Positions 5,932 to 61,489 are shown, numbered from the stretch's first letter. The stretch is 64,000 nucleotides of DNA from Candidatus Thorarchaeota archaeon (GCA_029855935.1 JAGSHN010000030.1:1-64000), one strand, 5' to 3'. The notes: generated from the sequence alone by a model not told the origin. A program made the numbers and translations.

Positions 5932-7128
5932 ATGCCAGAGCCAGCAACGGTGTATTTCGGTTCTGTCCAGCATGGTGCCAAGGCTGCCTTTGCATCATTC
6001 GCAGCGAAGGTCGACGAGGTCTTCAGGAGACTGGACCTCTCCACGATTGACAAGAAGGACAAGGTTGCGATCAAGATGCACCTTGGTTTCAGGGACGGCT
6101 ATCAGACGGTGCCCGTGTTCTTTGTCCGTCGGATTGTCAAGGCAATCAAGGAACGGGGTGCCTTTCCGTTTGTCACCGACAATCCGACGTCAGTGTACAA
6201 TGCTGTTGCGAGGGGCTACACGCAAGAGACATGTGGCTGTCCAATCATTCCGATAACTGGTGTGAAAGACGGCTACGTGGAGAGGGTCGATGCCGGGCTC
6301 CACGGCGTCGAGAGTATGGATCTTGCTGGAGTTCTGAGGGACGCGGACGTCCTTGTTGACCTGACGCACGTGAAGGGCCACAACTCTTGTGGCTTCGGCG
6401 GTGCAATCAAGAACATCGCCATCGGGGGCTACGCCGCAAATACGAGGTGGAAAAAGTATCACACCGTGTACTCGCACGTCCCATACTGGGACCCTGACAA
6501 GTGCACACCGGAGCACGCAAAGAGACTTGTCGACTCCTGTCCCTACAACTGCATCAAGTACGACGAGGGGAGACACAGTCTGACGATAGTGTTCGATGTG
6601 TGCAATCAGTGTATGAAGTGTATCAGAGCTGACGAGGGGGTCGGATGCCTGGACATAAGACAGGAGCACTTCTCCGCGTTTCAAGAGCTTATGGCCGTCG
6701 GTGCGAAGATCGTCCTTGACACCTTCGACGAAGACAAGCGGTTCTTCGTCAGTTTCCTGACTGAGATAACCGCCCTGTGTGATTGCTGGGGCTTCGGGCA
6801 GCCCTGTGTCGTCAATGACATCGGAGTACTCTCAAGCCGGGACATTGTTGCCATAGAGCAGGCGTCGCTGGACCTCATAGCCAAGGAGGGCCTGATCGAG
6901 AAGAACATCCCACCGTTCCTGCGGACCAATCTCGATCCCCATATGGACCTGCATCCATTCCAGCGCCTTCACGGACCAATGAAGGACCCCCATATCGCGG
7001 TCCGGTATGCTGAGAAGCTCGGGCTCGGGACCACAGAGTACGAACTTGTCGAGATTCTGAGGCCAGAGGAGACCCTGAAGATGAAGCCGCCGGAGGGCAT
7101 CAGCGAGACAGAGCCATCATTCTTCTAG
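5932..7128 (+). CDS. DUF362 domain Fe-S protein
   Basis: VAIKMHLG, THVKGH..GFGGAIKNIAIG, ferredoxin-like CP..C/CNQCMKC, CDCW, DIVAIEQAS. Confidence 0.85.
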   Translation: MPEPATVYFGSVQHGAKAAFASFAAKVDEVFRRLDLSTIDKKDKVAIKMHLGFRDGYQTVPVFFVRRIVKAIKERGAFPFVTDNPTSVYNAVARGYTQETCGCPIIPITGVKDGYVERVDAGLHGVESMDLAGVLRDADVLVDLTHVKGHNSCGFGGAIKNIAIGGYAANTRWKKYHTVYSHVPYWDPDKCTPEHAKRLVDSCPYNCIKYDEGRHSLTIVFDVCNQCMKCIRADEGVGCLDIRQEHFSAFQELMAVGAKIVLDTFDEDKRFFVSFLTEITALCDCWGFGQPCVVNDIGVLSSRDIVAIEQASLDLIAKEGLIEKNIPPFLRTNLDPHMDLHPFQRLHGPMKDPHIAVRYAEKLGLGTTEYELVEILRPEETLKMKPPEGISETEPSFF

Positions 7129-7307
7129 CTTGCGAGACGAACACCTACAGCGATGATCCTGCTATCACACTATGGGAACGCCTTCCCGATTGGCATCGAC
7201 CAGCGGATGCAGCATCGTGTCTCGCGGTAACCGAGAGATTGTCGGAGCAGGTATACGCACACAATACGCTAATAACGTCATGCTGCCGTGCCTGTGCGGC
7301 GATAGAG

Positions 7308-8402
7308 GTGATTCTGCCACCGCCCACAGCAACGGTACTCTTCACGTTCGAGCAGGTCACATTCTGGGCTGGTGCCCTATTGATGCTCCGGACCTACCGG
7401 AGATACGGGTTCGAGGCCTACAGGTATATGGCGCTGTCATTTGGCCTCTGGGCTGTCAGCTCGTCATTCAGGCTCTTGGCAAACATGTTTGAGAGCAACG
7501 AGATGAACACGGTAACCACCCTGTGGCAGGTGATGAACCTCTTTCTGATCCTCGGTATTGTGACGACGTTCTATTCGTTCTTCTACTATCAGCACAACCG
7601 ACTACCCGCGCGCACAAACATCGCATCCCTCCTCGGCGGAGGTACAATCGTCGCCTACTGTAACCCGGACTGGTTCAGCGTCAGTCGAGACTTGCAGGCC
7701 CAGATCTATGCGGCCTCGTATTCTCCCGTTGTCAACCTCTTCGCAGTACCACTTATCGTACTCTTCATACTGGTCTTCCTGCGTCCGATATTCAGAAAGT
7801 TCAGAAGGGCGAGCTCGGAGGAGGGACGCAAGGAGGCTCTGAGCCTACTGCTGGTCCTGTCGTTCCTTCTTGGCTGGGCAGCAGCGAGCGGTCTGACGGG
7901 AATTCCTCTTGTGCGCATTGCGCGACCGTTCCTCTTTGTCGCAGGATGGATGGTGTGGATAGTATTGACCTCTCGCCGGCCTCTGACGCTGATCTTCTCT
8001 GAGAGGTCATTCGACAAAGTACTTGTGATGACGAGCGCGGGCTATCCGATACTGCTGTACGACTTCCAAGAAAAGCGATTTGAGGACCCCTCTCTCTTCT
8101 CTGCGCTCTTCTCTGCCCTAGAGACGGCCATGAGCAACCTCATTGAGACACAGAGCGAGCTACAATCAATCTACTACGAGAACAAGGTCATCACCATCGA
8201 GAAGAGAGCAGACGTGTTCTTTTTCGGGATTGGCGACGAACCGGACACAGCTCTTGAGGCTGCGCTTCGCGTGTTTGCTGACCTGTTGTTGCAGTATCAC
8301 TCGTTCTCGGTCGAGGAGGACGGGGCCGTTTTCGCTCTTGACCTTGACGAAGATGTGGTAACGGAGATAGTAGAGCAGTCATTCGGGAGTGTCACAGTAT
8401 AG
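7308..8402 (+). CDS. 7TM membrane protein with C-terminal longin-like domain
   Basis: Seven hydrophobic segments, then VLVMTSAGYPILLYDF..DPSLFSALFSAL..LQSIYYENKVITIE pattern; start uncertain. Confidence 0.7.
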   Translation: MILPPPTATVLFTFEQVTFWAGALLMLRTYRRYGFEAYRYMALSFGLWAVSSSFRLLANMFESNEMNTVTTLWQVMNLFLILGIVTTFYSFFYYQHNRLPARTNIASLLGGGTIVAYCNPDWFSVSRDLQAQIYAASYSPVVNLFAVPLIVLFILVFLRPIFRKFRRASSEEGRKEALSLLLVLSFLLGWAAASGLTGIPLVRIARPFLFVAGWMVWIVLTSRRPLTLIFSERSFDKVLVMTSAGYPILLYDFQEKRFEDPSLFSALFSALETAMSNLIETQSELQSIYYENKVITIEKRADVFFFGIGDEPDTALEAALRVFADLLLQYHSFSVEEDGAVFALDLDEDVVTEIVEQSFGSVTV

Positions 8403-20054: not shown

Positions 20055-20990
20055 ATGCGTTTCGGAGTGCAGGTTGAGCCTCAGTTCGGCTTCCCGTACG
20101 AGAGGATACTTGAGATCGCTAGCGAGGCCGTTGAGAATGGTCTCCCCTCGGTCTGGTTCTCGGATCACTTTATGCTGAACAGAGAGGCGGGAGACCGGAT
20201 ACTGCTCGACCCCTGGCTCGTGATGGCAGCCCTCTCTCGTGACACCGAAGACGTACGCCTGGGTGGTCTTGTCTTCTGCAACTCATACAGGATGCCAACG
20301 CTGCACGCAAAGATGGGTGCAACACTGGACGTTCTGTCGAACGGCCGGCTTGAGTTCGGCATTGGTGCTGGATGGAAGGAGATTGAGTACCGTGCCTACG
20401 GGTACGAGTTCCCACCAGCACCCACGAGGATTGCTCAGCTCTCAGAGGCACTACAGATAATCCGTTGTGCGTGGACGGAGGAGCGCTTCTCTTTCCACGG
20501 CAACTACTACCATGTCGAGGAGCACATATCCTATCCGAAACCGGTCCAGCGACCGCATCCGACCATCTGGGTTGGGACAATGACAGCAGGTCCGAAAATG
20601 GTCGATGTCGCAGCCCACTACGGGGACGGTATCAACGTGGCCTGGCGGTTCCGACCTGAAGAGTGCAAGAGGATATTCGACGAGCTGGATGACCGGGCAG
20701 AGAAGTACGGGCGGAAGAGAGGTGCTATCAAGAGGTCCGTGGGACTATGGACGCATGTCTTTGCCTCAGAGGCCGAGTATCAGAGGGGCCTTGAGAGTGA
20801 GGCTGCAAGAAGGGGCATCTCGGTCGAGCAGCTCAGGGAGAGAGTATCAACGGCGCTCTGGGGTACAGTCGACCAGGTCGCTGACAGACTCCGCGAGTAC
20901 GAAGAGCTCAACGTGGAGTATGCAATATTGATGTTCCCCCACGGTGAGGAGCTAGACCAGATGCGCCTACTGAGGGAGAACGTCGTCTGA
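20055..20990 (+). CDS. LLM class (F420-dependent) oxidoreductase
   Basis: WFSDHF, DPW, LDVLSNGRLEFGIGAGW, PKPVQRPHP. Confidence 0.9.
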   Translation: MRFGVQVEPQFGFPYERILEIASEAVENGLPSVWFSDHFMLNREAGDRILLDPWLVMAALSRDTEDVRLGGLVFCNSYRMPTLHAKMGATLDVLSNGRLEFGIGAGWKEIEYRAYGYEFPPAPTRIAQLSEALQIIRCAWTEERFSFHGNYYHVEEHISYPKPVQRPHPTIWVGTMTAGPKMVDVAAHYGDGINVAWRFRPEECKRIFDELDDRAEKYGRKRGAIKRSVGLWTHVFASEAEYQRGLESEAARRGISVEQLRERVSTALWGTVDQVADRLREYEELNVEYAILMFPHGEELDQMRLLRENVV

Positions 20991-30628: not shown

Positions 30629-31195
30629 ATGAGTACTGAGAAGACCCTGCTTGTTGGACTGCTCGTTGTCATAGTCATCACCGGTATTGCTATCGGTGTC
30701 AGTGTCCTGTCAATGCCGCAGGAGAACACTCAGAACAAGGGCGGTCAGGACAGTTCTCTCGCCCCTGACATCGACCTGATTGACCAGGAGCGGATGGTCC
30801 CGGACTGGGAGTTCGAGATGTCTGATGGTAGCAGCCTGGCCATAAGGGACTTGATAGGAAAATGGGTCATTGTTGACCTGATGAGCACCTCGTGTCCAGC
30901 GTGCGAGGCCGAGAATGACGAGCTAAAGGAGATCTATCGTGACCACAGTGACTCGATAGTCATCCTGAGCCTCTCCGTGGACAGCAGCTCCACGCCAGAT
31001 ATCATGGCTCAGTACAAGGAGTCGCGGGATATACCCTGGGACGTGGGCCTCGACGACAACGGGTTCTTCGTGCAGTACTTCCGCGTGCGGTATACTCCAA
31101 CGCTGGTGATCATCGACGATCAGGGGTACTTCAGGATGTATCACGAGGGACTGTGGACAGCGGATGACATTATGCAAGCAATGTCACTGATGTGA
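30629..31195 (+). CDS. Membrane-anchored TlpA/ResA-like thiol-disulfide reductase
   Basis: N-terminal TM, TSCPAC, YTPTLVIID. Confidence 0.85.
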   Translation: MSTEKTLLVGLLVVIVITGIAIGVSVLSMPQENTQNKGGQDSSLAPDIDLIDQERMVPDWEFEMSDGSSLAIRDLIGKWVIVDLMSTSCPACEAENDELKEIYRDHSDSIVILSLSVDSSSTPDIMAQYKESRDIPWDVGLDDNGFFVQYFRVRYTPTLVIIDDQGYFRMYHEGLWTADDIMQAMSLM

Positions 31196-31216
31196 ATCCA
31201 TTCGGAGATGTAGCCA

Positions 31217-31903
31217 GTGCAGCAGATTGTGGAGGTACTCCTTCAGGTCGGAGCGAGCTTCGCGGTGGGCTTTTACACTGCAGTCTCACCGTGCCTGTTT
31301 CCTCTCCTCCCGCTCATGCTACTTCGGAGCCTCCAGACTGAAGACTCCCATCGGCATAGTCTCCTCATCACGATGACTCTGGTGCTGGGCATCCTGAGCT
31401 CAATCGCAGTGTTTGCTGCAATCTCAGGACTCATCGGGATGTTCCTGGTCCAGAATCATAACCTCCTACAGGCGGGGCTGGGCGTCCTGCTTGTCTTCTT
31501 GGGAGTGGTCACGATGTCCGAGAGACTGCGAACTCTGCTCCGTCTCTCCACCCTTAGCCTGACACGGCAACCAGACCTTCCTACCAGCCTGCTGAACGTC
31601 TATCTGATCGGACTCGGCTACTCCCTTCTCGCAGCACCGTGTTCCGGCCCCGCCCTACTAGGAGTGTTCGTACTGTTCGGTTCCTCAAGCGAACCAGTCA
31701 TTCTGATTGTGATGTTTGTGGCGCTCGCTGTGGGAGTCACGATACCCTATCTGGCGATTGCCCTAGTCAGTGGAGAGGCCCGTCAGAGAATGACATCGTC
31801 ACTCGCAAGGTCTTCCCGACTGGTCGAGATCGTCGTTGGGACTCTGCTCATCATAGTCGGCGTAGTCCTGATGCTACCCTTCTTTGGGGTGGTCATCCTC
31901 TGA
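31217..31903 (+). CDS. ccdA: CcdA/DsbD-TM family protein
   Basis: SPCLFPLLP and APCSGP cysteine motifs, 6 TM, adjacent to TlpA. Confidence 0.85.
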   Translation: MQQIVEVLLQVGASFAVGFYTAVSPCLFPLLPLMLLRSLQTEDSHRHSLLITMTLVLGILSSIAVFAAISGLIGMFLVQNHNLLQAGLGVLLVFLGVVTMSERLRTLLRLSTLSLTRQPDLPTSLLNVYLIGLGYSLLAAPCSGPALLGVFVLFGSSSEPVILIVMFVALAVGVTIPYLAIALVSGEARQRMTSSLARSSRLVEIVVGTLLIIVGVVLMLPFFGVVIL

Positions 31904-32674
31904 GACCACCAGATCGCTCTTCGGACGCGCAAACAGGTCCTCAGCAGGGTCGCGCAGGATGCTTGTGGCAGTCCCCTCCGTTCTCTCGACTCGGAGCCCT
32001 CTGACCACCGCCACCGGGACACCCTCATCTGCCTGGCCCATCACGAGCTCGGCGGCCGCCGCTATCTCGTCGGCAACACAGATGAGCGACGACTTCAACA
32101 CCCGGCCGAAGAGGTCGGTCTTTCCGGCATTCCGGACAAACGGGTCGATGCCAGAGACCCCGATACACACATTGACAGCGCCCCTACGCCACGGCCGACC
32201 CTGGGTGTCCGTGATGATCACGCCCACCGACACTCCGCCCCACTCCTGAATGTGTGTCCTCAGACGCTCAGCAGAGGCGTCGGGGTCTCTTGGAAGAAGA
32301 ACGACGTAGCCCTCCGTAGCGTTGCTCAGGTCCACCCCTGACATGTCGGTGACAATGCCAGCACGAGTGCGAGTGATCAACACGGGTGCCTCAACAAGAA
32401 CCTCATCAGCCTCATCGAGGGCCACCTGTACGACGCGAGGGTCTCGGCCCGTCAGTGATGCGATTCTCTCGGCCGTACGCGACACTTCAACAGTCCTCAG
32501 ATCCACCACGCGGCCCTCGGATATGGACACCACCTTGTGCGTGACGACAACGATATCGCCATCTTGGAGTCGCAACCCCGCCCTCTGCATCTGGTTCACT
32601 ATTAGAGAGCCGAGGTCATCGCCCGGAGATACGGGGGGGATTCCAGTGACAGGCACGACCTCGTACTCGGACAT
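31874..32674 (-). CDS. cofE: Coenzyme F420-0:L-glutamate ligase
   Basis: GDIVVVTHKVVSISEG, GVDLSN, DTQGRPWRRG, ADEIAAAAELVMG. Confidence 0.92.
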   Translation of the reverse strand: MSEYEVVPVTGIPPVSPGDDLGSLIVNQMQRAGLRLQDGDIVVVTHKVVSISEGRVVDLRTVEVSRTAERIASLTGRDPRVVQVALDEADEVLVEAPVLITRTRAGIVTDMSGVDLSNATEGYVVLLPRDPDASAERLRTHIQEWGGVSVGVIITDTQGRPWRRGAVNVCIGVSGIDPFVRNAGKTDLFGRVLKSSLICVADEIAAAAELVMGQADEGVPVAVVRGLRVERTEGTATSILRDPAEDLFARPKSDLVVSEDDHPKEG

Positions 32675-32710
32675 CGCCTCCACCGGTCCCAGACAGGTGA
32701 CGTCGAGGTC

Positions 32711-50880: not shown

Positions 50881-51120
50881 CTACTTGGTCCTCTTGATGA
50901 ACCAGATGAACTTGCCGTCCTCCTCGTTCATCCCGAGGATCTCGTGGCCGGTACGTTCCGCCCATGCCGGGAAGTCCTTCTTGGTCCCGATGTCAGTGGC
51001 TATGACTTTCAGGACCTGCCCGACCTCCACATTCTGAATCTCCTTCTTCAGCTTCAGTACGGGCATCGGACATCGAAGGCCTGATGCGTCAAATTCTCTC
51101 GCAAACTCGTAGTCGGTCAT
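50881..51120 (-). CDS. tusA: TusA family sulfurtransferase
   Basis: FDASGLRCPMP, VIATD..KDFPAWA. Confidence 0.92.
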   Translation of the reverse strand: MTDYEFAREFDASGLRCPMPVLKLKKEIQNVEVGQVLKVIATDIGTKKDFPAWAERTGHEILGMNEEDGKFIWFIKRTK

Positions 51121-51307
51121 TGTGCATCGTCGTCGCACGCCAGCTGAGCCCTATTATTCGTTTTCGTATGTGAAATGTCAATTTTTGAAATCGTCATCAG
51201 GTGATTGAGTTCGGTTGCAGGCTGTAAGAGTCGCGCCTCCAAAATGTGCTAGTTTCGTCAGACTTATCTGGATGATTGGCGGACTCCGAACACCTAGGTG
51301 AAGAGCT

Positions 51308-51703
51308 ATGGCAGTCTTCCAATTGCTACTACTTGTTCTGGTAGGACTGGCCATCGGGACAATGTTCTCGGGTTTCATGCTTGCCCGTAGAATGGGAATG
51401 TTCCTGATGATGCAGGTGATGATGTTGATGCTGTCGATGTTTGTGGCGTTCGGCGCCCTTGCTGTTGGGCTGCTCCTTCCGCCGCAGGTCCCTGCTCAAT
51501 TCGACCTTCTGCATCTCATCCTGATTGTCGACCTGATCCTTGTGCTCCTCGCTCTGCTGATGGAGTTCGGTCAAGTCGTCCCAATCTTGATGAAGACTAT
51601 GCAGGGCGCACCAATGCACAGCAGCCACATCACAAACCTGCTCGTGCTGTTCTTTCTGCTACTCGGGCTTGTGATGTACTACCCGATCCTAGCAGTCCTA
51701 TAG
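51308..51703 (+). CDS. Met-rich 4TM membrane protein
   Basis: Four hydrophobic helices, MGMFLMMQVMMLMLSM, MHSSH; 15 nt before dsrE. Confidence 0.75.
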   Translation: MAVFQLLLLVLVGLAIGTMFSGFMLARRMGMFLMMQVMMLMLSMFVAFGALAVGLLLPPQVPAQFDLLHLILIVDLILVLLALLMEFGQVVPILMKTMQGAPMHSSHITNLLVLFFLLLGLVMYYPILAVL

Positions 51704-51718
51704 GAGGATGAAGAGAGA

Positions 51719-52081
51719 ATGCCATCACTGTATATCATTGGTCAGTGGGGCCCTGAGGCCGCCGAGCGCTGCTACGGACCATTCGTGACTGGGACTACCG
51801 CTCAGGCACAGGAGATTGATGTCACCATCTTCCTGATGATGGACGCCGTCTGGCTCGTCAAGAAGGGTGTGCCTGAGAAGATCAAGGCTCCGGGATTCCC
51901 GCCCCTGCCGGAACTCATCGACGCGTTTCTTGAGGCTGGTGGGAAGATTCAGGTCTGTTCGAACTCTGCAGAGTTCAGAGGTCTGAGCGAGAAGGACCTC
52001 TATGATGAGCGGATCGAGATTGCCGGAGCGGCCACCATGGTGGACGGTATCTTCAAGCACGACCGGTACATTGCGTTCTAG
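51719..52081 (+). CDS. DsrE family sulfur-relay protein
   Basis: VTIFLMMDAV, GGKIQVCSNSAEFRG (conserved Cys), IAGAATMV. Confidence 0.88.
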   Translation: MPSLYIIGQWGPEAAERCYGPFVTGTTAQAQEIDVTIFLMMDAVWLVKKGVPEKIKAPGFPPLPELIDAFLEAGGKIQVCSNSAEFRGLSEKDLYDERIEIAGAATMVDGIFKHDRYIAF

Positions 52082-52089
52082 GGGATGCT

Positions 52090-52125
52090 GGGCCAATCGG
52101 CCCCTCCTCTATCCTATTTTTCTCG
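52090..52125 (+). terminator. Short hairpin plus T-tract after dsrE
   Basis: gggcc-aatc-ggccc followed by ctattttt. Confidence 0.35.
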
Positions 52126-52420
52126 GAATTGCAGTCGACCCAGAGAAGAGTCTGATTGTGGCGCTCTCCTCAGACCGATGAGCATCTCTGACTCAGAGAC
52201 GATACCCGTCGGGAGTGCACGCCGTTCAAACCATGTTCGTCAGAGGTCACGTGAGGCCTCTGGATTGGGCTGCCAATGATCGTCACTCAGGTCCGTGTTC
52301 TTGACGACGCGGCCACGAGGAGGGTGCTCGCACCGTGTGGAGCCAATAGAAATAGTTGGTGGGACGCTCTTCCGACCCGGGCATAGCCGCGTCAGAGGAG
52401 CGACCCGCTCGGCAGTGCGA

Positions 52421-52654
52421 CTACTTCACGCACTCGAAGTACAGTGCCCACTCGCCGTCATCAATCTCCTCGACACCAAGGAACTTGTTCTTCGTCTTTG
52501 CGATCTCTCTCTGAACAGAGTCCACCGCGGGTGGATGGTCAATCAGGACCTTAAGTACGGTCCCCGGTGCCAGCTTCATCAGAGTCTGTTTCGTGCGCAA
52601 AGCCGGGTAGGGACACACTTGTCCCCGCACATCAAGCTCTTCATCATAGTCCAT
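52421..52654 (-). CDS. tusA: TusA family sulfurtransferase
   Basis: LDVRGQVCPYP, VLIDHPPA. Confidence 0.9.
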   Translation of the reverse strand: MDYDEELDVRGQVCPYPALRTKQTLMKLAPGTVLKVLIDHPPAVDSVQREIAKTKNKFLGVEEIDDGEWALYFECVK

Positions 52655-52682
52655 CTTTCTGTCTACCTCCATTATGTCTTCT

Positions 52683-53723
52683 CTATTCCTTCAGCGACCA
52701 CGCGAGGCGATAGGGATCGCTTGGATCCTCCAGTAGCTCCACAGCACCCTCCTGTTGGAGAACAAGAAGGTGGTAGTGGACCTTCTCGGGTGGCGCCTCC
52801 AGTCGTTGAGCTATCTCGACTGTGGTGGCCTCACCAACGGCCGAGAGTTCGCTCGCAATCCTCTCGCGCAGAGGCCTCTTGACCTCCGCTGGAGTGCGTT
52901 TGGCCTTACGTGCCTGAGATGCAGTGACCCTTGAGTAGTCAGCCTCACCAATCTCGAAGAGTCCTGCCCCCAGTGCCTGATCAAGCACGGCCTTCCCGCG
53001 CTCCGTCAGTGCGATGACTGTCGTATAGCCCTTCTTGCTGCCCGCAAAGCCGCAAGAGATATCGGCATGCGTGGCCACAAAGTCCGTGCAGTACTCGCAG
53101 GGCGTCATCTTTGTGGTCTTGCCGTCATCCGTCTTCCGCATGTTGTTGGAACAGAACAGGCCAATCTTGAGTACACTAATGCCAAGAGTCTCCTCCCAAC
53201 GCGACACCCCACGTAGCTCGCACGGCAGCCCGACCACTGCGAGTCTACCACGCGTGTCGCGCTGATGCCGGATGAGATGCTCCATCACGCCGCTCGGAGA
53301 GTATCTGGTCCCGGCTAGGGAGGGTATGTCGTCCGCCTTCTCGACGACCATAGGCTCAGGTGAGTACTTCTCTCCCGTCACCCCCACCACAGCATCGACA
53401 TCGCCGTTCTCGAGAAGGAACTTGAACAGTGTCGTCACAAAGCCGCCATTCGATGCACTCTCCAAGATCGCCTCGTCTTTGGAGCGGACCGAGACGACCG
53501 CAAGAGGCTCCTCGATCTCAGCGGGTACCTGTTCGGGGTGTGCCTGTGGACAGATGTCAAAACATCGTCCGCAATGGTCGGCACCGCGTCGCAGGATGCA
53601 TTTGCCCGTCAGAGTCGGTACGCCGTCCTTCATTGTGATGGACTTGCAGGTACCAACGCATAGGCCGCAGCCCTCGCACAGGCCGCGGTCAATCACCTGT
53701 TCCTTAAGCAGATCGAAGCTCAC
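52683..53723 (-). CDS. FrhB/FdhB-like F420-binding subunit with N-terminal ferredoxin and C-terminal wHTH
   Basis: CEGCGLC..CGRCFDICP, SNGGFVT, AGTRY, VGLPC, IGLFC, CEYCTDF..ADISCG; wHTH tail. Confidence 0.85.
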   Translation of the reverse strand: MSFDLLKEQVIDRGLCEGCGLCVGTCKSITMKDGVPTLTGKCILRRGADHCGRCFDICPQAHPEQVPAEIEEPLAVVSVRSKDEAILESASNGGFVTTLFKFLLENGDVDAVVGVTGEKYSPEPMVVEKADDIPSLAGTRYSPSGVMEHLIRHQRDTRGRLAVVGLPCELRGVSRWEETLGISVLKIGLFCSNNMRKTDDGKTTKMTPCEYCTDFVATHADISCGFAGSKKGYTTVIALTERGKAVLDQALGAGLFEIGEADYSRVTASQARKAKRTPAEVKRPLRERIASELSAVGEATTVEIAQRLEAPPEKVHYHLLVLQQEGAVELLEDPSDPYRLAWSLKE

Positions 53724-54966
53724 ATGACCACTCCCTGATAACACCCTGTTCATCAGTTGAAAACGAAACGCGGCTACAGCCGTCCTCAGACCGCGCGTGA
53801 ACGGCCTTGATCTCAAGAGGACCCACGCAGTACGTGTCAAAGCCGTTCTTGGCGGACTTCACAGGTCTCTTGAAGCCGCCGAAGTAGACGTTCGACAGGA
53901 CCTCGTTGCCGCCAATAGTCCGAATCTTGTCAATGACGCCCTCAAGCGCCTCGATGTCGTGCTGGTCCAGTGCCGTCAGAAGCCCGTCCTGAGCAGCACG
54001 GAGCTCTGACCGCAGCTCGCGGGTCTCATCACTCACCTGAATCCCTGCTGCAGCCTCGTAGGCCTCGATCAGATTCAGAGCAACAGAGATGCCATAGCGG
54101 CCGTAGATTGTGGCAGCTATCTGAGGTGCCTCCTCAATCGGACGAGCCACCATTATGTCGGCAAGCTCGTCGCCTGTTGATGGATTGCGTCCTGGAAACT
54201 TGAAATGGGAGGCGAGATGAAACCTGAAGAACGTCCCCACAACATCCACCAGCGAGCGCGTTATCTCATCAGGTCTGTCGCCAAGCCGGTCTGTCGCGCA
54301 GTCCGTGGCGACGGTATCCACCTGCAAGTTGACCGCCAGGGAGCCAAAGTACCCGATCATTCGACCGGGCGGGTCGTCAACCATCCCGACACAGCCCCTG
54401 CACGGAGTATCGAAGTCTATGCAGCGCTGGGCACATCTCGCAGAGAGGACACCACTACATGCCAGCCCGAGATTGTTGAAGCATTTCTCCCTGTTCGACC
54501 AGTCAGGCACGCGGATGATCTTGTCAAACTCCTCGTCAGTGAAGTGGCGCTCGCACTCCGAGCAGAGAGGCTGACGTTGAGCAGATTGCCCCTCAATGAC
54601 TGAGAGGAGTTCATCCGGACTTGGCGCACAACCGAGGACTGAGGCCACTGGGGAAAGATATTCGGTCACCGGGACCACATCTGCTCCCTTCTGATTCATC
54701 AGTCCGAATATGCCACCAGTGTACGGACAGGTGCCGTACAGAATCAACTTCTTTCCTCTACTCAGAAGCTCTCTGAGTCTTGCCTCGTCGGACTTTCGCG
54801 CGTATCCGGTGATAACGACAAAGTCGGCGTCATTGTCACTGCCGCTACCGCCGTCAATGAGAGGATGAGAGACAAACTCCACAGAGCTGTTCTTCGCCAG
54901 AGTCAGTAGATCCCACGCACAGCGCTCGCAGCCCCGCAACTGGACAACACTCAGTCTCACCATCAC
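53704..54966 (-). CDS. MvhG-like hydrogenase small subunit fused to a degenerate large-subunit fragment
   Basis: GCERC, GTCPYTGG, GCAP, LCSEC, CF..C..C..C..PCRGC, DVVGTFFRF; then about 155 extra aa. Confidence 0.8.
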   Translation of the reverse strand: MMVRLSVVQLRGCERCAWDLLTLAKNSSVEFVSHPLIDGGSGSDNDADFVVITGYARKSDEARLRELLSRGKKLILYGTCPYTGGIFGLMNQKGADVVPVTEYLSPVASVLGCAPSPDELLSVIEGQSAQRQPLCSECERHFTDEEFDKIIRVPDWSNREKCFNNLGLACSGVLSARCAQRCIDFDTPCRGCVGMVDDPPGRMIGYFGSLAVNLQVDTVATDCATDRLGDRPDEITRSLVDVVGTFFRFHLASHFKFPGRNPSTGDELADIMVARPIEEAPQIAATIYGRYGISVALNLIEAYEAAAGIQVSDETRELRSELRAAQDGLLTALDQHDIEALEGVIDKIRTIGGNEVLSNVYFGGFKRPVKSAKNGFDTYCVGPLEIKAVHARSEDGCSRVSFSTDEQGVIREWSCELRSA

Positions 54967-55367
54967 TTTGCACCTCCGGGACAGGGCGGGGTCTCTGGGT
55001 CGTACTTCCGCTCGAGGATGTCCTCAAAGTCGCCGACAATGGTGTCGCCCTCAGCAGCCCTCGATGTGTACATCGTCACGCAGTCGGTGCTGTATCCCAT
55101 CTCGACAAGGAACTTCTTCACTATCTTGACCCGTCGGAGCGTGATCAGGTTGGCGTCACTGAAGTGGCAGGCTCCAAAGCAGCAGCCGATGACTGCCACC
55201 GCCTCCGCTCCGTTGTTGAAGGCATGAAGAATCTCCCGTGCGCCCGCACGGCCAGCACACGGCACTCTCACTATGTGTATCTCGTCGCTGTATCTCATTC
55301 GTTGGACACCAGCGGTGTTTGCAGCACCCTGGGCACAATTCTGACAGAGAAAGGCCACAATCATCAC
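54963..55367 (-). CDS. mvhD: MvhD/FlpD [2Fe-2S] subunit
   Basis: AFLCQNC, RVPCAGR, GCCFGACHF. Confidence 0.9.
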   Translation of the reverse strand: MMIVAFLCQNCAQGAANTAGVQRMRYSDEIHIVRVPCAGRAGAREILHAFNNGAEAVAVIGCCFGACHFSDANLITLRRVKIVKKFLVEMGYSTDCVTMYTSRAAEGDTIVGDFEDILERKYDPETPPCPGGAK

Positions 55368-57400
55368 TCATCGCCTCCTTCAAGCTCTGCTGCCACGGAC
55401 AATAGCGCACTGACCTCTGCGTTCAGCTGCGAGTCCCTGAAGTTCCGAATCTGGATTGCACCCACTGGACAGGCCGGAACGCACGCACCGCAGCTCTTGC
55501 ACGCAACATCGTTCACCTTCGGCTTCTCCCCCTCGGCCACCGATATGGCACCAACGGGGCACGTCGTCACGCATCCGAGGCAGGATATGCACAGTTCCTC
55601 GTCAATCACAGCGGTGTCCATCCGTTTCTCCAAAAAACCCTGGACAAGGGGTTGTGCAGCAGCCGATGCAGCGCCGCCAGCATGTGCCACCGTCTGGGTG
55701 ATGTCTTTCGGCCCCTGAATGGCCCCGGCCAAGTAGACTCCATCGCGACTGCTGCGGACAGGACCCATCTTGACGTGGTACTCCTTCGCGAAGCCCTCCT
55801 TTGCTCGGAGCAGCTCCAGCTTGGCACTGAGTTTTCCAAAACCCCTCGGCGCGACCATTCCCGCGCTCAGAACAACAAGGTCCGCCTCGATGCACATCGG
55901 CATATGGGTCAGTGTGTCCTCGACCTCGACGCGGATCTTGTCGCCTGTAGGGTCAGGGGTGATGGTCGAGGGACGACCTCGGATGAATCTGATGCCCTTC
56001 TTCTGGGCGCGCTTGTAGTACTCCTCGTAGTACAGTCCTGGTGTCCGGATATCAATGTAGCAGAAGTACACCTCAGTGTCGGGTAGATGGTCCTTGATTA
56101 TGCCGGCATTCTTGATGCCGAACATGCAACACACGCCGGTACAGTATTCATTACCCACCTGATCGTTGCGCGACCCGACACATTGGACGACCACCACGGT
56201 CTTGGGCACTTCCCCATTAGACGGCCGTACTATCTTGCCTTTTGTCAGCGTGGTGGGCGCGAGCATGCGTTCCATCTGTAGCTGCGTTATGATGTCCGGA
56301 TGGCCGTAGTGATAGGCGGTTATCTCCGTCGGGTCGTACTCCTCATAACCGGTTGCAACTACGATTGTCCCGACTTCGAATGTGCGCTCCTCCTTCGTCA
56401 TCGAGAAGTCCACAGCGTCAACGGGGCACACAATGACGCACGAGCCGCAGTCGATGCAGTGCTTCGTGTCCAGAGTGAAGACTGACGGGAGGGCCTGTGG
56501 GAAGGGCTTGTAGATTGCCTTGCGCATCCCGAACCCGTGGTCCCACTCGTTCTCCACCTCGACAGGACAGACGTCTGCACATCGTCCACAAGAGGTGCAG
56601 TTGTCATGTACGTAGCGCGGCTTTGTTGTCACCTCGACCACAAAGTGGCCCATCGTTCCCTCTACATTGGTCACCTCACTGAGTGTGAGCACCTCAATGT
56701 CGGGATGACTCATCACTCCGTTGAGCAGCGGGCTGACCGTGCACATCGGGCACTCATTAGTGGGGAATGTCTTGTTTAGCATCGTCATATGCCCGCCAAT
56801 CGAGGTCTCTTTCTCGACGAGGACCACTGGAATCCCGAGCTCAGCAAGGTCCATTGCCGCCCTGAGGCCAGCGACGCCGCCTCCAACGACCATTGTGCGT
56901 TTTGTGATCGGAATCTTCCTCGTGGCCACGGGCTCTTTCTTCGAGGCCCGTGCGACACCAGCAGCGACCATCCGCTTTGCCTTCTCCGTTGCCGCCTTCT
57001 TGTCATCAGTGACCCAAGAACACCACTCGCGTATGTTCACCTGAGTGTGCATATGCGGGTTCAGTCCGAGATCACTAATGGCCTTGGCAAAGGTCGGCCA
57101 GTGCTGCTCGTACGAGCACGACGCAACGACCGTTCTATTCAGTCCGTGCTCCTTCACGGCCTTCTGAATGAGCTCAATGCCCTGCTTTGAACACATAAAC
57201 AGGTAGTCAGTCGAGTATTCCACGTTTGGCAGATGAGAGGCGAACTCGGCAACATCCTTGACATCAACGACACCCGCTATGTTCTCACCACAGTGACACA
57301 CGAACACTCCGACGCGGGGCCGTTCCTGCTCCGCCGGTTCATCCTTGTTCTTCGCCTTCCTCGTCTTCCTCTGCTTGCCTTTCTTCTCGGACTTGCTCAT
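55364..57400 (-). CDS. hdrA: Heterodisulfide reductase subunit A
   Basis: VFVCHCGENI, GGGVAG, KTFPTNECPMC, two ferredoxin modules, QCVGSR..CTGVCCMFGIK, GPKDI. Confidence 0.95.
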   Translation of the reverse strand: MSKSEKKGKQRKTRKAKNKDEPAEQERPRVGVFVCHCGENIAGVVDVKDVAEFASHLPNVEYSTDYLFMCSKQGIELIQKAVKEHGLNRTVVASCSYEQHWPTFAKAISDLGLNPHMHTQVNIREWCSWVTDDKKAATEKAKRMVAAGVARASKKEPVATRKIPITKRTMVVGGGVAGLRAAMDLAELGIPVVLVEKETSIGGHMTMLNKTFPTNECPMCTVSPLLNGVMSHPDIEVLTLSEVTNVEGTMGHFVVEVTTKPRYVHDNCTSCGRCADVCPVEVENEWDHGFGMRKAIYKPFPQALPSVFTLDTKHCIDCGSCVIVCPVDAVDFSMTKEERTFEVGTIVVATGYEEYDPTEITAYHYGHPDIITQLQMERMLAPTTLTKGKIVRPSNGEVPKTVVVVQCVGSRNDQVGNEYCTGVCCMFGIKNAGIIKDHLPDTEVYFCYIDIRTPGLYYEEYYKRAQKKGIRFIRGRPSTITPDPTGDKIRVEVEDTLTHMPMCIEADLVVLSAGMVAPRGFGKLSAKLELLRAKEGFAKEYHVKMGPVRSSRDGVYLAGAIQGPKDITQTVAHAGGAASAAAQPLVQGFLEKRMDTAVIDEELCISCLGCVTTCPVGAISVAEGEKPKVNDVACKSCGACVPACPVGAIQIRNFRDSQLNAEVSALLSVAAELEGGDE

Positions 57401-58278
57401 AGCTCTACCGCCTCCAGTTTGAAGTCCGGTGCGATCGTCTGGTACTCGAGTCCAATGTCATCCAGTCCCATTGCAAAGGCCGTGAGCTGCGAGATGTGAA
57501 TGACCGGGACGTTGAAGTTAGTCCCGAATTTCTCGTTCAGGCTCTTCTGACCAGTGTCGAACTGTAGATGGCAGAAGGGGCAGATGTCCAGGATTGCCTC
57601 GGCCCCAACCTCCGTTATGGCCGCCATCTTCTCGCCCAACATCTCCAGCGAGACCTCGATGTGACCTGCTCTCACACCGCCGCCCGCTCCGCAGCACGCG
57701 TGTTTCCTGCGGTAGTCAATCAACTCGACGCCGAGTGCCTCAAAGTAGTCTTCAAGAATCGTCGGGTCCTCGGGATCGTCAATCTGTTTGAGGTGGAATG
57801 GCCGAAGGAAGTGACAACCATAGTGGATTGCACCACGCAGACGCACCTTGCGCTTGAGATAGTCCCGAATCCCATAGGGCCCAATGTCAAAACCGAGGAC
57901 CTGAGCAATGTGTTTGACCTCCTGATTCGCCTCGACATGATAGCCGAGATCCGCCAGCCGGGCGTTCACATCCTTTTTCAGCTCCTCGTCGTTCTTCAGG
58001 GCGTGGTTTACCTCGAAGAGTGTGCCGAAGCATCCGTTGCACACAGTGAGGAGGTCTGCACCGTTCGCCTCCGCGATGGCGAGGTTTCTTGCTGCAGCCA
58101 CCATCCAGTCCGGCTTGTTGAAGGAGCGGAAGACTCCGGGTGCAGGACAGCAGCCCGCGCGCTCCATCTCCTTGATCTCGATTCCCAGCTTGTCCAGAAC
58201 AAATCGTGTCGTGGACTCAATGGCGGGATATCGGTTGGGCATTATGCAGCCCAGAAACAACGAGTATGACTGTGCCAC
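57397..58278 (-). CDS. hdrB: Heterodisulfide reductase subunit B
   Basis: FLGCIMPNRYP, CCPAPG, CNGC, HYGCH, CCGAGGG, CPFCHLQFD. Confidence 0.95.
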   Translation of the reverse strand: MAQSYSLFLGCIMPNRYPAIESTTRFVLDKLGIEIKEMERAGCCPAPGVFRSFNKPDWMVAAARNLAIAEANGADLLTVCNGCFGTLFEVNHALKNDEELKKDVNARLADLGYHVEANQEVKHIAQVLGFDIGPYGIRDYLKRKVRLRGAIHYGCHFLRPFHLKQIDDPEDPTILEDYFEALGVELIDYRRKHACCGAGGGVRAGHIEVSLEMLGEKMAAITEVGAEAILDICPFCHLQFDTGQKSLNEKFGTNFNVPVIHISQLTAFAMGLDDIGLEYQTIAPDFKLEAVEL

Positions 58279-58820
58279 TAACGTTCTTCCTCCTCGTCAT
58301 GGTCCTCTGGTCTCGGTGGCAACTGGAAGAGCGTTTTGCCGAGCTTCTCCAGTTCTTCGGGATAACAGTAAACAGTGGGAGGGAGCTCGGGCAGGCCGAG
58401 CTCCTTTCTTATCTTGCGAATCCTGTCGTTGATGGGGACAGCGTGGCCCGTCTTGTGTAGAAGGTCCACCGTCTTGCGATGCTTGTCGCTGATGAATCCC
58501 CTCGCTGATGCCAGGTTTCTGAGGGCAATTATCGCATCTGTCACTTGCAGGTCGCGTGGACATCTGTCATAGCATTGGTAGCATGTCGTGCAGAGCCATA
58601 TGTCGGGATCCGAGAGGACCACCTCGATGCTGAATGCAGCCTTGCGCATCACCTCGCGGGTACGCATCGCTGTCCAGCGCCCAGAGGGGCAGCTGGCGGT
58701 ACAGGTCCCGCACTGAATGCAGAGATTGGGATCGAACCCGGCTGCCTTCAATGTCTCCTCGATGGTCGGATCCCTCTTGCCGGAGTCCAGCACGCACGGT
58801 GGGTTCTTGAAGACGGACAA
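58278..58820 (-). CDS. hdrC: Heterodisulfide reductase subunit C
   Basis: CIQCGTCTASCP, IWLCTTCYQCYDRCPR, TGHAVP, LGLPELPPT. Confidence 0.95.
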   Translation of the reverse strand: MSVFKNPPCVLDSGKRDPTIEETLKAAGFDPNLCIQCGTCTASCPSGRWTAMRTREVMRKAAFSIEVVLSDPDIWLCTTCYQCYDRCPRDLQVTDAIIALRNLASARGFISDKHRKTVDLLHKTGHAVPINDRIRKIRKELGLPELPPTVYCYPEELEKLGKTLFQLPPRPEDHDEEEER

Positions 58821-58842
58821 GACGGACCACCTCGTCTGACAT

Positions 58843-59199
58843 CTACGCTCCGAAGAAGACCGTCTGGTCGGCCTCTTTCATTGTGTTGACGAGCCTGTGG
58901 ATGTCGATCACCTCGACACCGTCAATCAGGCTGCTGGCATCGATGCCGCGCTCCTTGAGACACAGACCACAGGCGATCACTTTGCCGCCGGCGTCCATAA
59001 AGTCCTGAAGGACCTGAACAACTTGGAAGAACTGCTTCGCCTCCTGTCCCTTGACGGCACAGTAGACGCCATCCTCCATCAGGATGATGGTGGTCTCACA
59101 GTCCTCCATCACAGACGTAAGTCCAATTCTGGCGGCCGTGAACGCTCCAATCTTGTCGTAGGGAGGTGTTGCGATTATTAGTGCGAACTTCTTGCTCAC
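58843..59199 (-). CDS. DsrE family sulfur-relay protein
   Basis: IIATPPY, LMEDGVY, GGKVIACGLCLKERG; GTG start after GAGGTGA. Confidence 0.88.
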   Translation of the reverse strand: MSKKFALIIATPPYDKIGAFTAARIGLTSVMEDCETTIILMEDGVYCAVKGQEAKQFFQVVQVLQDFMDAGGKVIACGLCLKERGIDASSLIDGVEVIDIHRLVNTMKEADQTVFFGA

Positions 59200-59451
59200 G
59201 TCTCTCACCTCGTTTTGGGTGTTAACGGCTCGCGGCGATGCTCTAAATAAATGTATGGCTATGAGGCTTCTCTCCAAACAATCGTTTACTGATGAGGGAA
59301 AGAGATAAATAAACGAGTGGCGGGGACCGAGGCAATACGCCCACGTGCACATATATATCGAGGGACGTCATATTCCGAAGGCCACGGAGACAGAGACGTG
59401 AAAGCCAGACTGCCTGTTGACACTCTCCGAGAACCAGAAAGGGTTCTTGAG

Positions 59452-59916
59452 ATGCTTGAGAGTGCGGCAGGCATTGACGAGCTGGACATCAGTATCATCC
59501 TCATTCTGCAGGAAAACGGACGCGCATCATTCAATGAGATAGCCAAGCGACTGGGCGTGAGCGTGGCAACGGTCAGCAAGCGTGTCAGGGCACTTGAGGA
59601 GAGGGGGATCATAAAGGGGTACGCGGCCGTCATCTCCTGTGAGAACCTCGGGTTCACCGAGAACCTGTGGCTGATGGTTCACACAAAACCGGGGGCTGAC
59701 GTAGACTCAATAGGCAAGCAGATCTCGGGGCTCATCGGCGTCAAGTGTGTGTACAGCATCTATGCCGACTTTGATCTCCTCGTACACATCTGCTGCGCGA
59801 CACAGGAAGAGATTGCCGCAACACTGCAGGCCATCGGCAAGATTCGTGATGTCGTCCGCGTCACCAAGATGAGCGTCTGCTCGAAGATAAAAGAGGAGTT
59901 CAAGATAGTCCTCTAG
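59452..59916 (+). CDS. Lrp/AsnC family regulator
   Basis: DELDISII..ENGRASFNEIAKRLG..LEERGIIKGY; divergent from the hdr operon. Confidence 0.9.
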   Translation: MLESAAGIDELDISIILILQENGRASFNEIAKRLGVSVATVSKRVRALEERGIIKGYAAVISCENLGFTENLWLMVHTKPGADVDSIGKQISGLIGVKCVYSIYADFDLLVHICCATQEEIAATLQAIGKIRDVVRVTKMSVCSKIKEEFKIVL

Positions 59917-60013
59917 CGTCGACTGGACGCTCCCGCGAGACTCCAGTGGAGTGCCATTGCCACGGAGAGTACCTCTAAAAGGACTACAGACGGGAGTTCG
60001 CCGGCGGAGACGC

Positions 60014-61489
60014 ATGGCGACAGAGAACGATCAGCGGGTGCTTCTCTCAGTGGGCATAGATGTGGGGACAGCCACATCCCATCTGGTATTCAGCAGACTC
60101 ACCCTTCAGCGGGATCCCCAGAGCAGGACCAACAAGTTCGAGGTGATGAAGAGGGAGATACTCTTCGAGGGGCCAATTCATCTCACTCCACTCATTGGAG
60201 AGACAAGGATAGACTACGACCTGCTGAAGGATATGCTGCTAGAGGACTATAGAGAGGCGGGTGTGGATCCCGGCGATGTTGACACCGGCGCAGTGATTGT
60301 GACCGGTGAGAGCGCTAGGCGTCAGAATGCCGACGAGATTGTCCGCGCGCTCGCAGGTGAGGGTGGCAGATTTGTAGCGGCAACTGCTGGACCCAATATG
60401 GAGAGCCTACTGGCCGCCTACGGCTCCGGTGCGGTGGAGCTCTCAAGAAGACAGGGCATCACTGTCATCAATGTCGACATAGGTGGAGGCTCCTCAAATG
60501 TCGCAGTATGCTCAAAGGGTCGTGTCGTTGATACCACTGCTATCAGCGTCGGCGGACGGCTTGTCGCATTGGATGAACACGGTAGAATTCGAAGGATAGA
60601 GGCGCCGGCCAAGACCATCGCCCGTCATCTCGGTCACACGCTCAGGGTCGGCCAGAGTATTGAGCCCACGGTGATTGGCGAGATCGTGACGCAGCTTGCC
60701 GATGCCCTCGCTCAGGTCTTGAGGGGACCACAGATTGACCAGCTGGCGCAGCAGCTGATGTTGACCTCCCCTCTGAAGGAGAACTACACACCCGACCTGA
60801 TTACGTTCTCTGGAGGAGTCGCGGAGTACATCTACGGCCTTGAGAAACGGTCCTTTGGAGATATTGGTCGGCAGCTCGCGGAGCAGGTTGCGATGCGCGT
60901 GGACTCACTCGGTATGTCGTTGGGGGAGGTCGAGCAGAGGATCAGAGCCACTGTCATCGGAGTGGGGCAGAACACCCTCCGTGTAAGCGGATCAACGACG
61001 TACCTCTCAGAAGGCGTCAGATTCCCGTTTCGGGATCTTCCCGTCGTCGAACCACTGCTGTCAGAGCGCTGGTGGAAGAAGGGGAGCGTCGTTGAAGAGA
61101 TAGGGCACGCGCTGAAGAGGTTTGACCTCCGAGAGGCGAGCGACGCATTCCTCCTCTCCTTCAGGGGACACCTCCCTCCTTCCTATGAGATTCTGGCAGA
61201 GTTCTCGCGCGGGCTTGTGCGGGCGGTCAGGGACCACTGTCAGGACGGAAGGCCACTGTTTCTCTGCTTTCAAGAGGACATCGGCAACAGTGTGGGGAAC
61301 ATCATCCGCAGAGAGACGGACTTTCAAGGGCCGATCATCTCTGTCGACGAGCTCGATGTGCGCGAGGGAGAGTACGTGGACATTGGAGAGCCCGTCATCG
61401 GTGAGTCTGTCGTGCCTGTGATTGTCAAGACCCTGGTGTTCGCAGGTAGTGACAGCAGACAACACAAGAGGAGAGCCTCGAAGACGTAG
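60014..61489 (+). CDS. eutA: Ethanolamine ammonia-lyase reactivating factor EutA family
   Basis: LSVGIDVGTATSHLVFS, TGAVIVTGE, FVAATAGP, DIGGGSSN, SGGVA, IRATVIG, VPVIVKTLVF. Confidence 0.9.
   Translation: MATENDQRVLLSVGIDVGTATSHLVFSRLTLQRDPQSRTNKFEVMKREILFEGPIHLTPLIGETRIDYDLLKDMLLEDYREAGVDPGDVDTGAVIVTGESARRQNADEIVRALAGEGGRFVAATAGPNMESLLAAYGSGAVELSRRQGITVINVDIGGGSSNVAVCSKGRVVDTTAISVGGRLVALDEHGRIRRIEAPAKTIARHLGHTLRVGQSIEPTVIGEIVTQLADALAQVLRGPQIDQLAQQLMLTSPLKENYTPDLITFSGGVAEYIYGLEKRSFGDIGRQLAEQVAMRVDSLGMSLGEVEQRIRATVIGVGQNTLRVSGSTTYLSEGVRFPFRDLPVVEPLLSERWWKKGSVVEEIGHALKRFDLREASDAFLLSFRGHLPPSYEILAEFSRGLVRAVRDHCQDGRPLFLCFQEDIGNSVGNIIRRETDFQGPIISVDELDVREGEYVDIGEPVIGESVVPVIVKTLVFAGSDSRQHKRRASKT

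Follow-up and report, generated by a model that had tools for sequence, protein, structure and literature searches.

A heterodisulfide reductase operon of Asgard archaea with a putative nickel-free hydrogenase relic and neighbouring sulfur-carrier genes

Described Hdr complexes and the Thorarchaeota operon

Several described heterodisulfide reductase (Hdr) complexes can be compared with an operon located at positions 52421-59199 of a 64,000-nucleotide stretch of DNA from a Candidatus Thorarchaeota archaeon (GCA_029855935.1, JAGSHN010000030.1:1-64000; contig C24:1-64000, hereafter the window). In hydrogenotrophic methanogens the complex is MvhAGD-HdrABC (5ODC and the 8RVU/9SW2 series). When nickel is limiting, Methanothermobacter marburgensis substitutes for Mvh a cofactor-less truncated FdhA, an FdhB-type subunit and an MvhD homologue, giving ElpABC-HdrABC (Nomura et al., 2025; PMC12350162). 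According to articles citing the original work, FlxABCD-HdrABC of Desulfovibrio has been reported to contact the sulfur carrier DsrC (Ramos et al., 2015; Ferreira et al., 2023, cited in PMC10504309 and PMC6470260), so that a canonical Hdr working with a sulfur carrier would not be unprecedented. Finally, the sHdr system is encoded together with TusA, DsrE3 and the lipoate-binding protein LbpA (PMC11094781). For Asgard archaea, a 2025 preprint on Nerearchaeum marumarumayae (10.1101/2025.07.22.663070) advances the hypothesis that persulfides on TusA/DsrE are the route by which Hdr reduces sulfite and thiosulfate; the idea of an Hdr-TusA-DsrE association in these archaea is already in print there and is not new here.

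In its architecture the operon is nearest to MvhAGD-HdrABC, and in its logic to Elp-Hdr. It shares with the former HdrA, HdrB, HdrC, MvhD and MvhG, similarly ordered and complete in their cofactor motifs, but it has no functional MvhA with RxCGxC and DPCxxCxxH, only a relic of 155 residues fused to MvhG. It also differs in an added FrhB-type flavoprotein, in flanking sulfur-carrier genes and in a host that lacks Mcr and the coenzyme M (CoM) pathway. With Elp-Hdr it would share nickel independence, a dead and truncated catalytic subunit that has been kept, an FdhB/FrhB-type feeder and an MvhD-homologue connector; here, however, the scaffold derives from a nickel-iron (NiFe) large subunit fused to MvhG and not from FdhA, no molybdopterin/FdhA-like gene is present in the operon, F420 biosynthesis is absent in the host lineage, and the presumed acceptor is not the heterodisulfide of CoM and coenzyme B (CoB), CoM-S-S-CoB. 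Flx-Hdr resembles it in combining a canonical HdrABC, an MvhD-like subunit and a flavoprotein input with a sulfur-carrier partner, a likeness extended by the NAD(P)H-type domain of the FrhB* protein of Lokiarchaeia, but the operon has no Flx genes, has an MvhG-relic module, and would use TusA/DsrE as carriers in a genome devoid of DsrC. The sHdr system likewise has hdr genes encoded with TusA and DsrE-family sulfur transferases, and differs from the present locus, which has a 678-aa bifurcating HdrA, includes MvhD and MvhG*, and lacks hdrC2B2 and LbpA. In the Nerearchaeum preprint the electron donor is H2, through a group 3c NiFe hydrogenase, and its accessible part describes neither the MvhG-relic fusion, nor FrhB* modules, nor a synteny survey; our literature search found no paper describing this fusion or the FrhB* variants. 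That the operon encodes a nickel-independent, canonical-Hdr, sulfur-carrier-linked Asgard complex, a variant of the Mvh-, Elp- and Flx-Hdr complexes, is in our view a well-founded hypothesis.

The eight genes, dsrE-hdrC-hdrB-hdrA-mvhD-mvhG*-frhB*-tusA, all lie on the minus strand with intact reading frames. An earlier interpretation of the window, made without database searches (the sequence-only reading), had described them as eight co-oriented, overlapping or closely spaced genes, and each of its assignments was matched by Pfam and NCBIfam. Because the junctions either overlap (by 1, 4, 4, 4 and 20 nt) or are spaced by 10-22 nt, the genes can be considered one translationally coupled operon. 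The host genome comprises 2.97 Mb and is 97% complete. Close homologues of MvhG*, FrhB* and the first DsrE carry Thorarchaeota or Hermodarchaeota labels, and from these and the loci of relatives we assign the host to the Asgard archaea, Thorarchaeota type, which bears out what the window alone had made probable.

A canonical Hdr core joined to a hydrogenase relic

HdrABC and MvhD belong, as judged from their sequences, to the canonical bifurcating methanogen type and not to sHdr, in agreement with the sequence-only reading. We assigned HdrA and HdrB to this class by PDB E-value contrasts, in place of a tree against methanogen, Flx and sHdr sequences, and applied the NCBIfam equivalog cut-offs to HdrB and HdrC. 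HdrC (58278-58820), a 2x[4Fe-4S] protein with two CxxCxxCxxxCP motifs, scores 192 bits with TIGR03290 (cut-off 160). HdrB (57397-58278) has two CCG domains with noncubane cluster sites (PF02754, two stretches), passes the CoB-CoM HdrB equivalog cut-off (TIGR03288, 368 bits; cut-off 345) and matches M. marburgensis HdrB (8rvu_b) with an E-value of 5.5e-97; the strings FLGCIMPNRYP and CCPAPG, which had marked it as methanogen-like, were found in it. HdrA (55364-57400), of the five-domain full-length type, matches methanogen HdrA over its whole length (residues 27-674 to 9sfi_A, 2e-203; 5odc_A, 1.6e-196), whereas its match to the sulfur-oxidiser sHdrA (6tjr_A, 4.7e-42) is confined to the flavin core. 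By sequence it keeps the FAD site and the N-terminal, inserted and C-terminal FeS domains. Its Glu377 (MER) and Lys430 (GIK), 53 residues apart and already proposed as a flavin-tuning pair, align with E356 and K409 of M. thermolithotrophicus HdrA (5odc_A offsets), the pair described as a mark of bifurcating HdrA (PMC12054007). The [2Fe-2S] connector MvhD (54963-55367; PF02662, 3.5e-32, positions 1-117 of 123) has His68 and Asp71, and HdrA has the Cys217/Cys220 pair; in a described complex, such residues are located between the MvhD cluster and the flavin (PMC13580544). Membership of the sHdr family was considered and rejected on the long methanogen-like HdrA, the single hdrC and hdrB, and the lack of an LbpA gene in the cluster.

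The 420-residue MvhG* (53704-54966) is recognized by PF01058 on its N-terminal third only, and its model (24 homologues, predicted local distance difference test, pLDDT, of 81) divides into two parts. The MvhG part (residues 1 to about 260; 54184-54966) superimposes on MvhG 5odc_E through residues 3-260, with a Z-score of 16.4 and a root mean square deviation (rmsd) of 3.1 over 241 aligned residues (VIA-align), and contains 12 Cys conserved in the 24 homologues, sufficient for three [4Fe-4S] clusters. The remainder (residues about 262-420; 53704-54183) resembles a miniature [NiFe] large subunit: residues 264-420 superimpose on FrhA 6qgt_A (Z 10.2, rmsd 2.4, 154 residues) and on HyhL 5yxy_A (Z 9.0), a profile of this domain matches the MvhA encoded in the same genome over residues 42-104 (hhalign, probability 92.9%, E-value 3.7e-7), and BLASTP links it to the large subunit at 1e-5. 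In place of the Ni-ligand motif RICGIC it has TIYGRYG, YGxxG standing for CxxC in 24/24 homologues, and the protein finishes before any DPCxxCxxH. From sequence and model, this domain appears to be a 155-residue remnant of a [NiFe] large subunit that has lost all Ni ligands. The complex encoded by the operon cannot contain its own NiFe site and, because the relic is devoid of Ni ligands, is unable to activate H2 by itself, as the sequence-only reading had foreseen in calling the complex nickel-independent. In conservation the relic does not fall behind the remainder of MvhG* (mean column identity of 61 and 58%, respectively). The family is rare: when 1.84 billion representative proteins were searched with a profile, 24 matched at E <=1e-3, 13 of these at <=1e-30. 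By analogy with the truncated FdhA (ElpA) of Elp-Hdr, it may have been kept as a scaffold.

The term hydrogenase-less, which had been applied to the system, holds for the operon's own complex, in which neither an intact MvhA nor an FdhA gene is present, but not for the genome, which contains two mvhD-mvhG-mvhA clusters (C24, about 78.7-81.6 kb; C28, about 7-9.7 kb) in addition to three other NiFe large subunits. Pairing of MvhG* with an MvhA encoded elsewhere was also considered and was rejected, as every other mvhA adjoins its own mvhG. We observed that both genomic mvhA genes (C24, about 78737-80053, outside the window; C28, about 6900-8213) keep the N-terminal RICGIC and that both frames stop (...LKLPDPIVKV* and ...LKLPEPMIE*) ahead of any DPCxxCxxH; a six-frame regular-expression search of the genome found this motif nowhere but in the C2 and C8 large subunits, and no small VhuU-like open reading frame was seen. 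The genome also encodes six MvhD paralogues and about 15 CCG proteins, six of them HdrB-like.

FrhB*, a variable electron port

FrhB* (52683-53723; PF04422, 8.9e-18; PF04432, 1.9e-19), for which position 53723 is the likeliest start by homology to gene calls in relatives, is laid out as an N-terminal 2x[4Fe-4S] ferredoxin domain, an FAD/[4Fe-4S] core of the FrhB type and a winged helix (residues 283-346). In its model (pLDDT 89), residues 1-280 superimpose on the F420-reductase subunit of Ca. Ethanoperedens (8riu_B) with a Z-score of 32.6 and an rmsd of 2.3 over 275 residues; FrhB, the N-terminal half of Fsr, FdhB and ElpB (8rvu_E, Z 23.8) are also matched, and residues 283-346 match winged-helix proteins (Z about 12). 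Eight N-terminal Cys (two clusters), GGFVT and the core residues C168, C191, C209 and C212 are invariant in 26 orthologues. By domains, fold and motifs, FrhB* is predicted to be a full member of the FrhB/FdhB family, a placement that does not imply F420 binding, since HCAR, a family member that does not use F420, is matched too (5dqr_D, Z 23.3).

Between lineages this protein is the variable module of the operon. The MK-D1-type FrhB* (locus L026:11260-13719; also L023-L025 and L028-L030) has 819 aa and carries, between FrhB_N and FrhB_C, an insert of Fer4_20 and Pyr_redox_2 that is GltD/NfnB-like and of the NAD(P)H type, while in Harpocratesius (L027:11283-11711) the protein is reduced to 142 aa, with the 2x[4Fe-4S] ferredoxin and the winged helix, and has lost the FrhB core. 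This suggests that the ferredoxin and winged-helix ends are the parts that attach FrhB* to the complex. A complex prediction for MvhG* and FrhB* (alignments A1 and A3) gave a score of 0.00, which carries no verdict and was used neither way.

The sequence-only reading had called the operon F420-linked, with F420H2 oxidised at FrhB* and its electrons bifurcated to ferredoxin and a protein persulfide. In favour of this proposal are the family of FrhB*, with F420 reductase modules (8riu_B, Fsr, FrhB and ElpB) as the nearest neighbours of FrhB* among solved structures, and the F420H2-driven precedents of Elp-Hdr and HdrA2B2C2 (PMC12350162, PMC5296606). The cofE gene announced in the window is indeed there (31874-32683; TIGR01916, 272 bits, cut-off 180) and has two paralogues in the genome (C21:293642-294292 and C16:11162-11806). 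The enzyme taken for an F420-type LLM oxidoreductase (20055-20990) does have F420-type LLM subfamilies as its best matches, but falls under the cut-off of each. What decides against F420H2 is the biosynthetic pathway: cofH (FO synthase) and cofD are absent from the 97% complete host genome and from five other cluster-bearing genomes, namely four Thor relatives and the closed genome of MK-D1. In a survey across the phylum, cofH was found in 0/86 genomes of the window's family and in 0/14 of MK-D1's family, as opposed to 118/135 in the large Loki family, and 13 cluster-bearing genomes fall in families without FO synthase. Similarly, metagenome-assembled genomes of Thor archaea are described as holding only part of the F420 biosynthesis genes (PMC8498797). 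Given also the GltD insert of the Loki proteins, the loss of the core in Harpocratesius and the kinship with HCAR, F420H2 is unlikely to be the donor to FrhB* here, the F420 link lacks support, and we consider the complete F420H2-driven scheme clearly improbable. Annotation to the FrhB family should not imply F420 use where a lineage lacks F420 biosynthesis. As side observations, cofE is retained in this genome in spite of the missing cofH and cofD and in a family without cofH, and it is adjoined, at 30629-31903, by genes for a ResA-like thiol-disulfide oxidoreductase and a DsbD/TsoB-like membrane protein.

Sulfur carriers, conserved synteny and the proposed reaction

The window's proteins were used to map 16 related loci in Thor-, Hermod- and Lokiarchaeia, including cultured MK-D1. 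The order hdrC-hdrB-hdrA-mvhD-mvhG*-frhB* occurs in 16/16, which is far from chance. TusA adjoins the hdr or mvhG* genes in every related locus with enough flanking sequence, and most of the loci also have DsrE or a DsrE-DsrF-DsrH trio. The arrangement varies with lineage: in the Thor relatives dsrE precedes the operon and tusA-dsrE-dsrF-like-dsrH follows it, in the Hermod locus L009 tusA-yeeE lies upstream, and in the Loki loci, including those of Promethearchaeum syntrophicum MK-D1 (L026) and Harpocratesius (L027), tusA-dsrE-dsrE-dsrH lies upstream and tusA follows frhB*. The expectation that tusA and dsrE would be kept next to these hdr genes in relatives was confirmed across three Asgard classes. 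In MK-D1 we also noticed that the tusA-dsrEFH cassette is immediately preceded, in mirror orientation, by another hdrC-hdrB-hdrA set (L026:3-2982).

In the host itself, the operon begins with dsrE (58843-59199; PF02635, 5e-18; GTG start), whose product has a candidate active-site Cys in ACGLCLKERG, and ends with tusA (52421-52672; PF01206, 5e-21), with the CPYP motif (VCPYP). An orthologue of this first DsrE has the same position in L004, L006, L019, L020 and L021; its family is lineage-specific, and a search for more distant relatives recovered only about 20 clusters, all of them close and of the Thor type, and is thus uninformative outside Asgard. A second pair lies 0.3-1.5 kb from the operon: a DsrE on the plus strand, convergent with it (51719-52081; PF02635, 1.9e-16; VCSNSAEFRG), with an 89-92% identical orthologue at the same place in L004 and L018, and a TusA on the minus strand (50881-51138; PF01206, 2.3e-24; CPMP, in RCPMP), which shares 80% identity with its counterpart, the second TusA, in L004. 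The candidate persulfide Cys is kept in both TusA proteins (CPxP) and in both DsrE proteins (ahead of the RG motif). Just one of the six HdrB paralogues of the genome, the operon copy, is adjoined by TusA/DsrE. Another TusA and DsrE pair (C21:316469-317070) and a DsrE-DsrE pair (C12:2758-3476) were seen elsewhere in the genome, neither beside an Hdr paralogue.

Where the relatives hold dsrE-dsrF-like-dsrH, the host has a gap of 316 bp (52106-52421), delimited by blastn blocks and tblastn, as against 1111 bp in the closest relative, L018; a faint DsrE remnant of 25 aa (E 0.013) is all that remains. Searching the rest of the genome with tblastn for a YeeE/TsuA-type transporter or a DsrEFH-like trio returned nothing convincing, the weak C12 DsrE pair being the one match.

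The identity of the disulfide reduced by HdrB is where the readings diverge most. McrA, ComA and DsrC (PF04358) are absent from the host genome, and therefore neither CoM-S-S-CoB nor DsrC is available as substrate. The conserved synteny and the kept persulfide Cys are suggestive of carrier-bound sulfane sulfur as a plausible Hdr substrate; of the earlier claim of a protein persulfide, the conservation of tusA and dsrE beside the hdr genes has stood, while the persulfide role itself derives from synteny only. Instead, the complex could reduce a low-molecular-weight heterodisulfide or another protein disulfide, with TusA/DsrE as accessory proteins that supply sulfur for clusters or cofactors, or as a separate, co-regulated trafficking pathway. 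The equivalog-level match of HdrB to the methanogen protein fits a small substrate, but the missing McrA and ComA leave it with no known source of a CoM/CoB heterodisulfide. TusA and DsrE proteins serve biosynthetic thiolation too, in other organisms, and the trio is dispensable in this host, both of which favour an accessory role; on the other side, the operon opens with dsrE, tusA stands in close translational proximity to frhB*, and the association spans three Asgard classes and, in the host, singles out one Hdr paralogue in six. On balance we consider this explanation rather unlikely, although it is the principal competitor.

The reaction could also run in the oxidative, confurcating direction, in which carrier sulfane sulfur or thiols and reduced ferredoxin would be oxidised and an acceptor on the FrhB* side reduced, as an analogue of sHdr or of the reverse Hdr of methanotrophs. 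TusA, DsrE and DsrEFH are familiar chiefly as suppliers of sHdr or rDsr in sulfur-oxidising organisms (PMC11094781, PMC3397948), and reversal of Hdr has been proposed for anaerobic methanotrophic (ANME) archaea (PMC9012536). The long bifurcating HdrA, distinct from the short sHdrA, and a cluster with neither a second hdrC2B2 set nor a lipoate-binding protein argue against this direction, which we hold to be fairly improbable.

The cut-down large subunit without metal ligands, together with the loss of the neighbouring dsrEFH-like genes in the host, could finally be taken to indicate that the operon is a decaying, functionless relic of an Mvh-Hdr hydrogenase. Against this stand eight intact and coupled frames, a stub as conserved as the FeS part of its protein, and a full-length MvhG* in 79/400 Asgard species genomes of several families (7/86 in the window's family, 64/135 and 6/14 in two Loki families, and 2 elsewhere). 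Short contigs 95-99% identical to MK-D1 hdrC, hdrB, hdrA, mvhD, mvhG* and frhB*, from two sediment metatranscriptome runs of one study (X2 and X3), give a weak hint of transcription, DNA carry-over being possible. A run labelled transcriptomic (X1) contains the MK-D1 locus as a single 20-kb contig of uniform depth, which looks like DNA and is uninformative on transcription. Decay is in our judgement highly improbable.

We favour the reading in which the operon encodes a hydrogenase-free, MvhAGD-HdrABC-like soluble complex, with FrhB* as its electron port and sulfane sulfur on TusA/DsrE as the substrate at HdrB, and place its probability at roughly 0.5. FrhB* would be an exchangeable entry or exit for a mid-potential electron pair, its partner probably not being F420 in the Thor lineage and probably being NAD(P)H, via the inserted GltD-like domain, in Lokiarchaeia. 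Electrons would pass from the FrhB* clusters to the MvhG clusters, the MvhD [2Fe-2S] cluster and the HdrA flavin, where they would be split between ferredoxin and the HdrB site. There, the S-S substrate would be the sulfane sulfur carried by TusA/DsrE (a Cys persulfide, a polysulfide or a carrier heterodisulfide), with release of H2S.

Several points weigh against this reading. The link from TusA/DsrE to HdrB comes entirely from gene neighbourhood, and HdrB is so close in sequence to its methanogen counterpart that a small-molecule heterodisulfide could still be its substrate. The host has lost the dsrE-dsrF-dsrH trio of its relatives, and because of this loss that part of the relay must be dispensable; the cluster is also patchy, as its frequency in the window's own family indicates. 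By our own estimate from textbook potentials, the transfer from a donor at the NAD(P)H level to ferredoxin and persulfide (about -200 to -270 mV) leaves little energetic margin. Contact between FrhB* and MvhG* is presumed, and the Thor-type FrhB* has no donor assigned to it. Taken as a whole, the sequence-only interpretation is partly supported.

Among the neighbouring genes, a divergent Lrp/AsnC-type regulator (59317-59916, plus strand; PF13412, PF13404 and PF01037) also flanks the operon divergently in L004, L006, L009, L019 and L021, and the Loki loci have an Lrp/AsnC gene upstream. It is followed by a EutA-like gene with a reactivase/ATPase fold (59951-61489), found at the same place in the Thor relative L004. 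On the other side, upstream of the second DsrE, a DUF5400 gene (51308-51703, plus strand; PF17379, 8e-6) encodes a small membrane protein, strongly hydrophobic in its hydropathy profile, which is also present in L004 and L018.

HdrABC is abundant in non-methanogenic archaea, including the Asgard archaea, where its substrate has been a puzzle since no CoM or CoB is made. The operon offers a testable candidate in the sulfur carried by TusA/DsrE, and as cultured strains such as MK-D1 carry the cluster, its biochemistry is feasible. It would also be a second independent case, after ElpA, of a catalytic subunit kept as a metal-free scaffold upon a change of Hdr donor. Tentatively, and with the odds against it, the operon might be the answer to the role of Hdr in Asgard archaea: a nickel-free bifurcation to TusA/DsrE sulfane sulfur as the high-potential acceptor, on a new dead-enzyme scaffold and with a donor module that lineages can swap. 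If the sulfur link is true, it would matter for models that place the archaeal ancestor of eukaryotes in a hydrogen-sulfur syntrophy.

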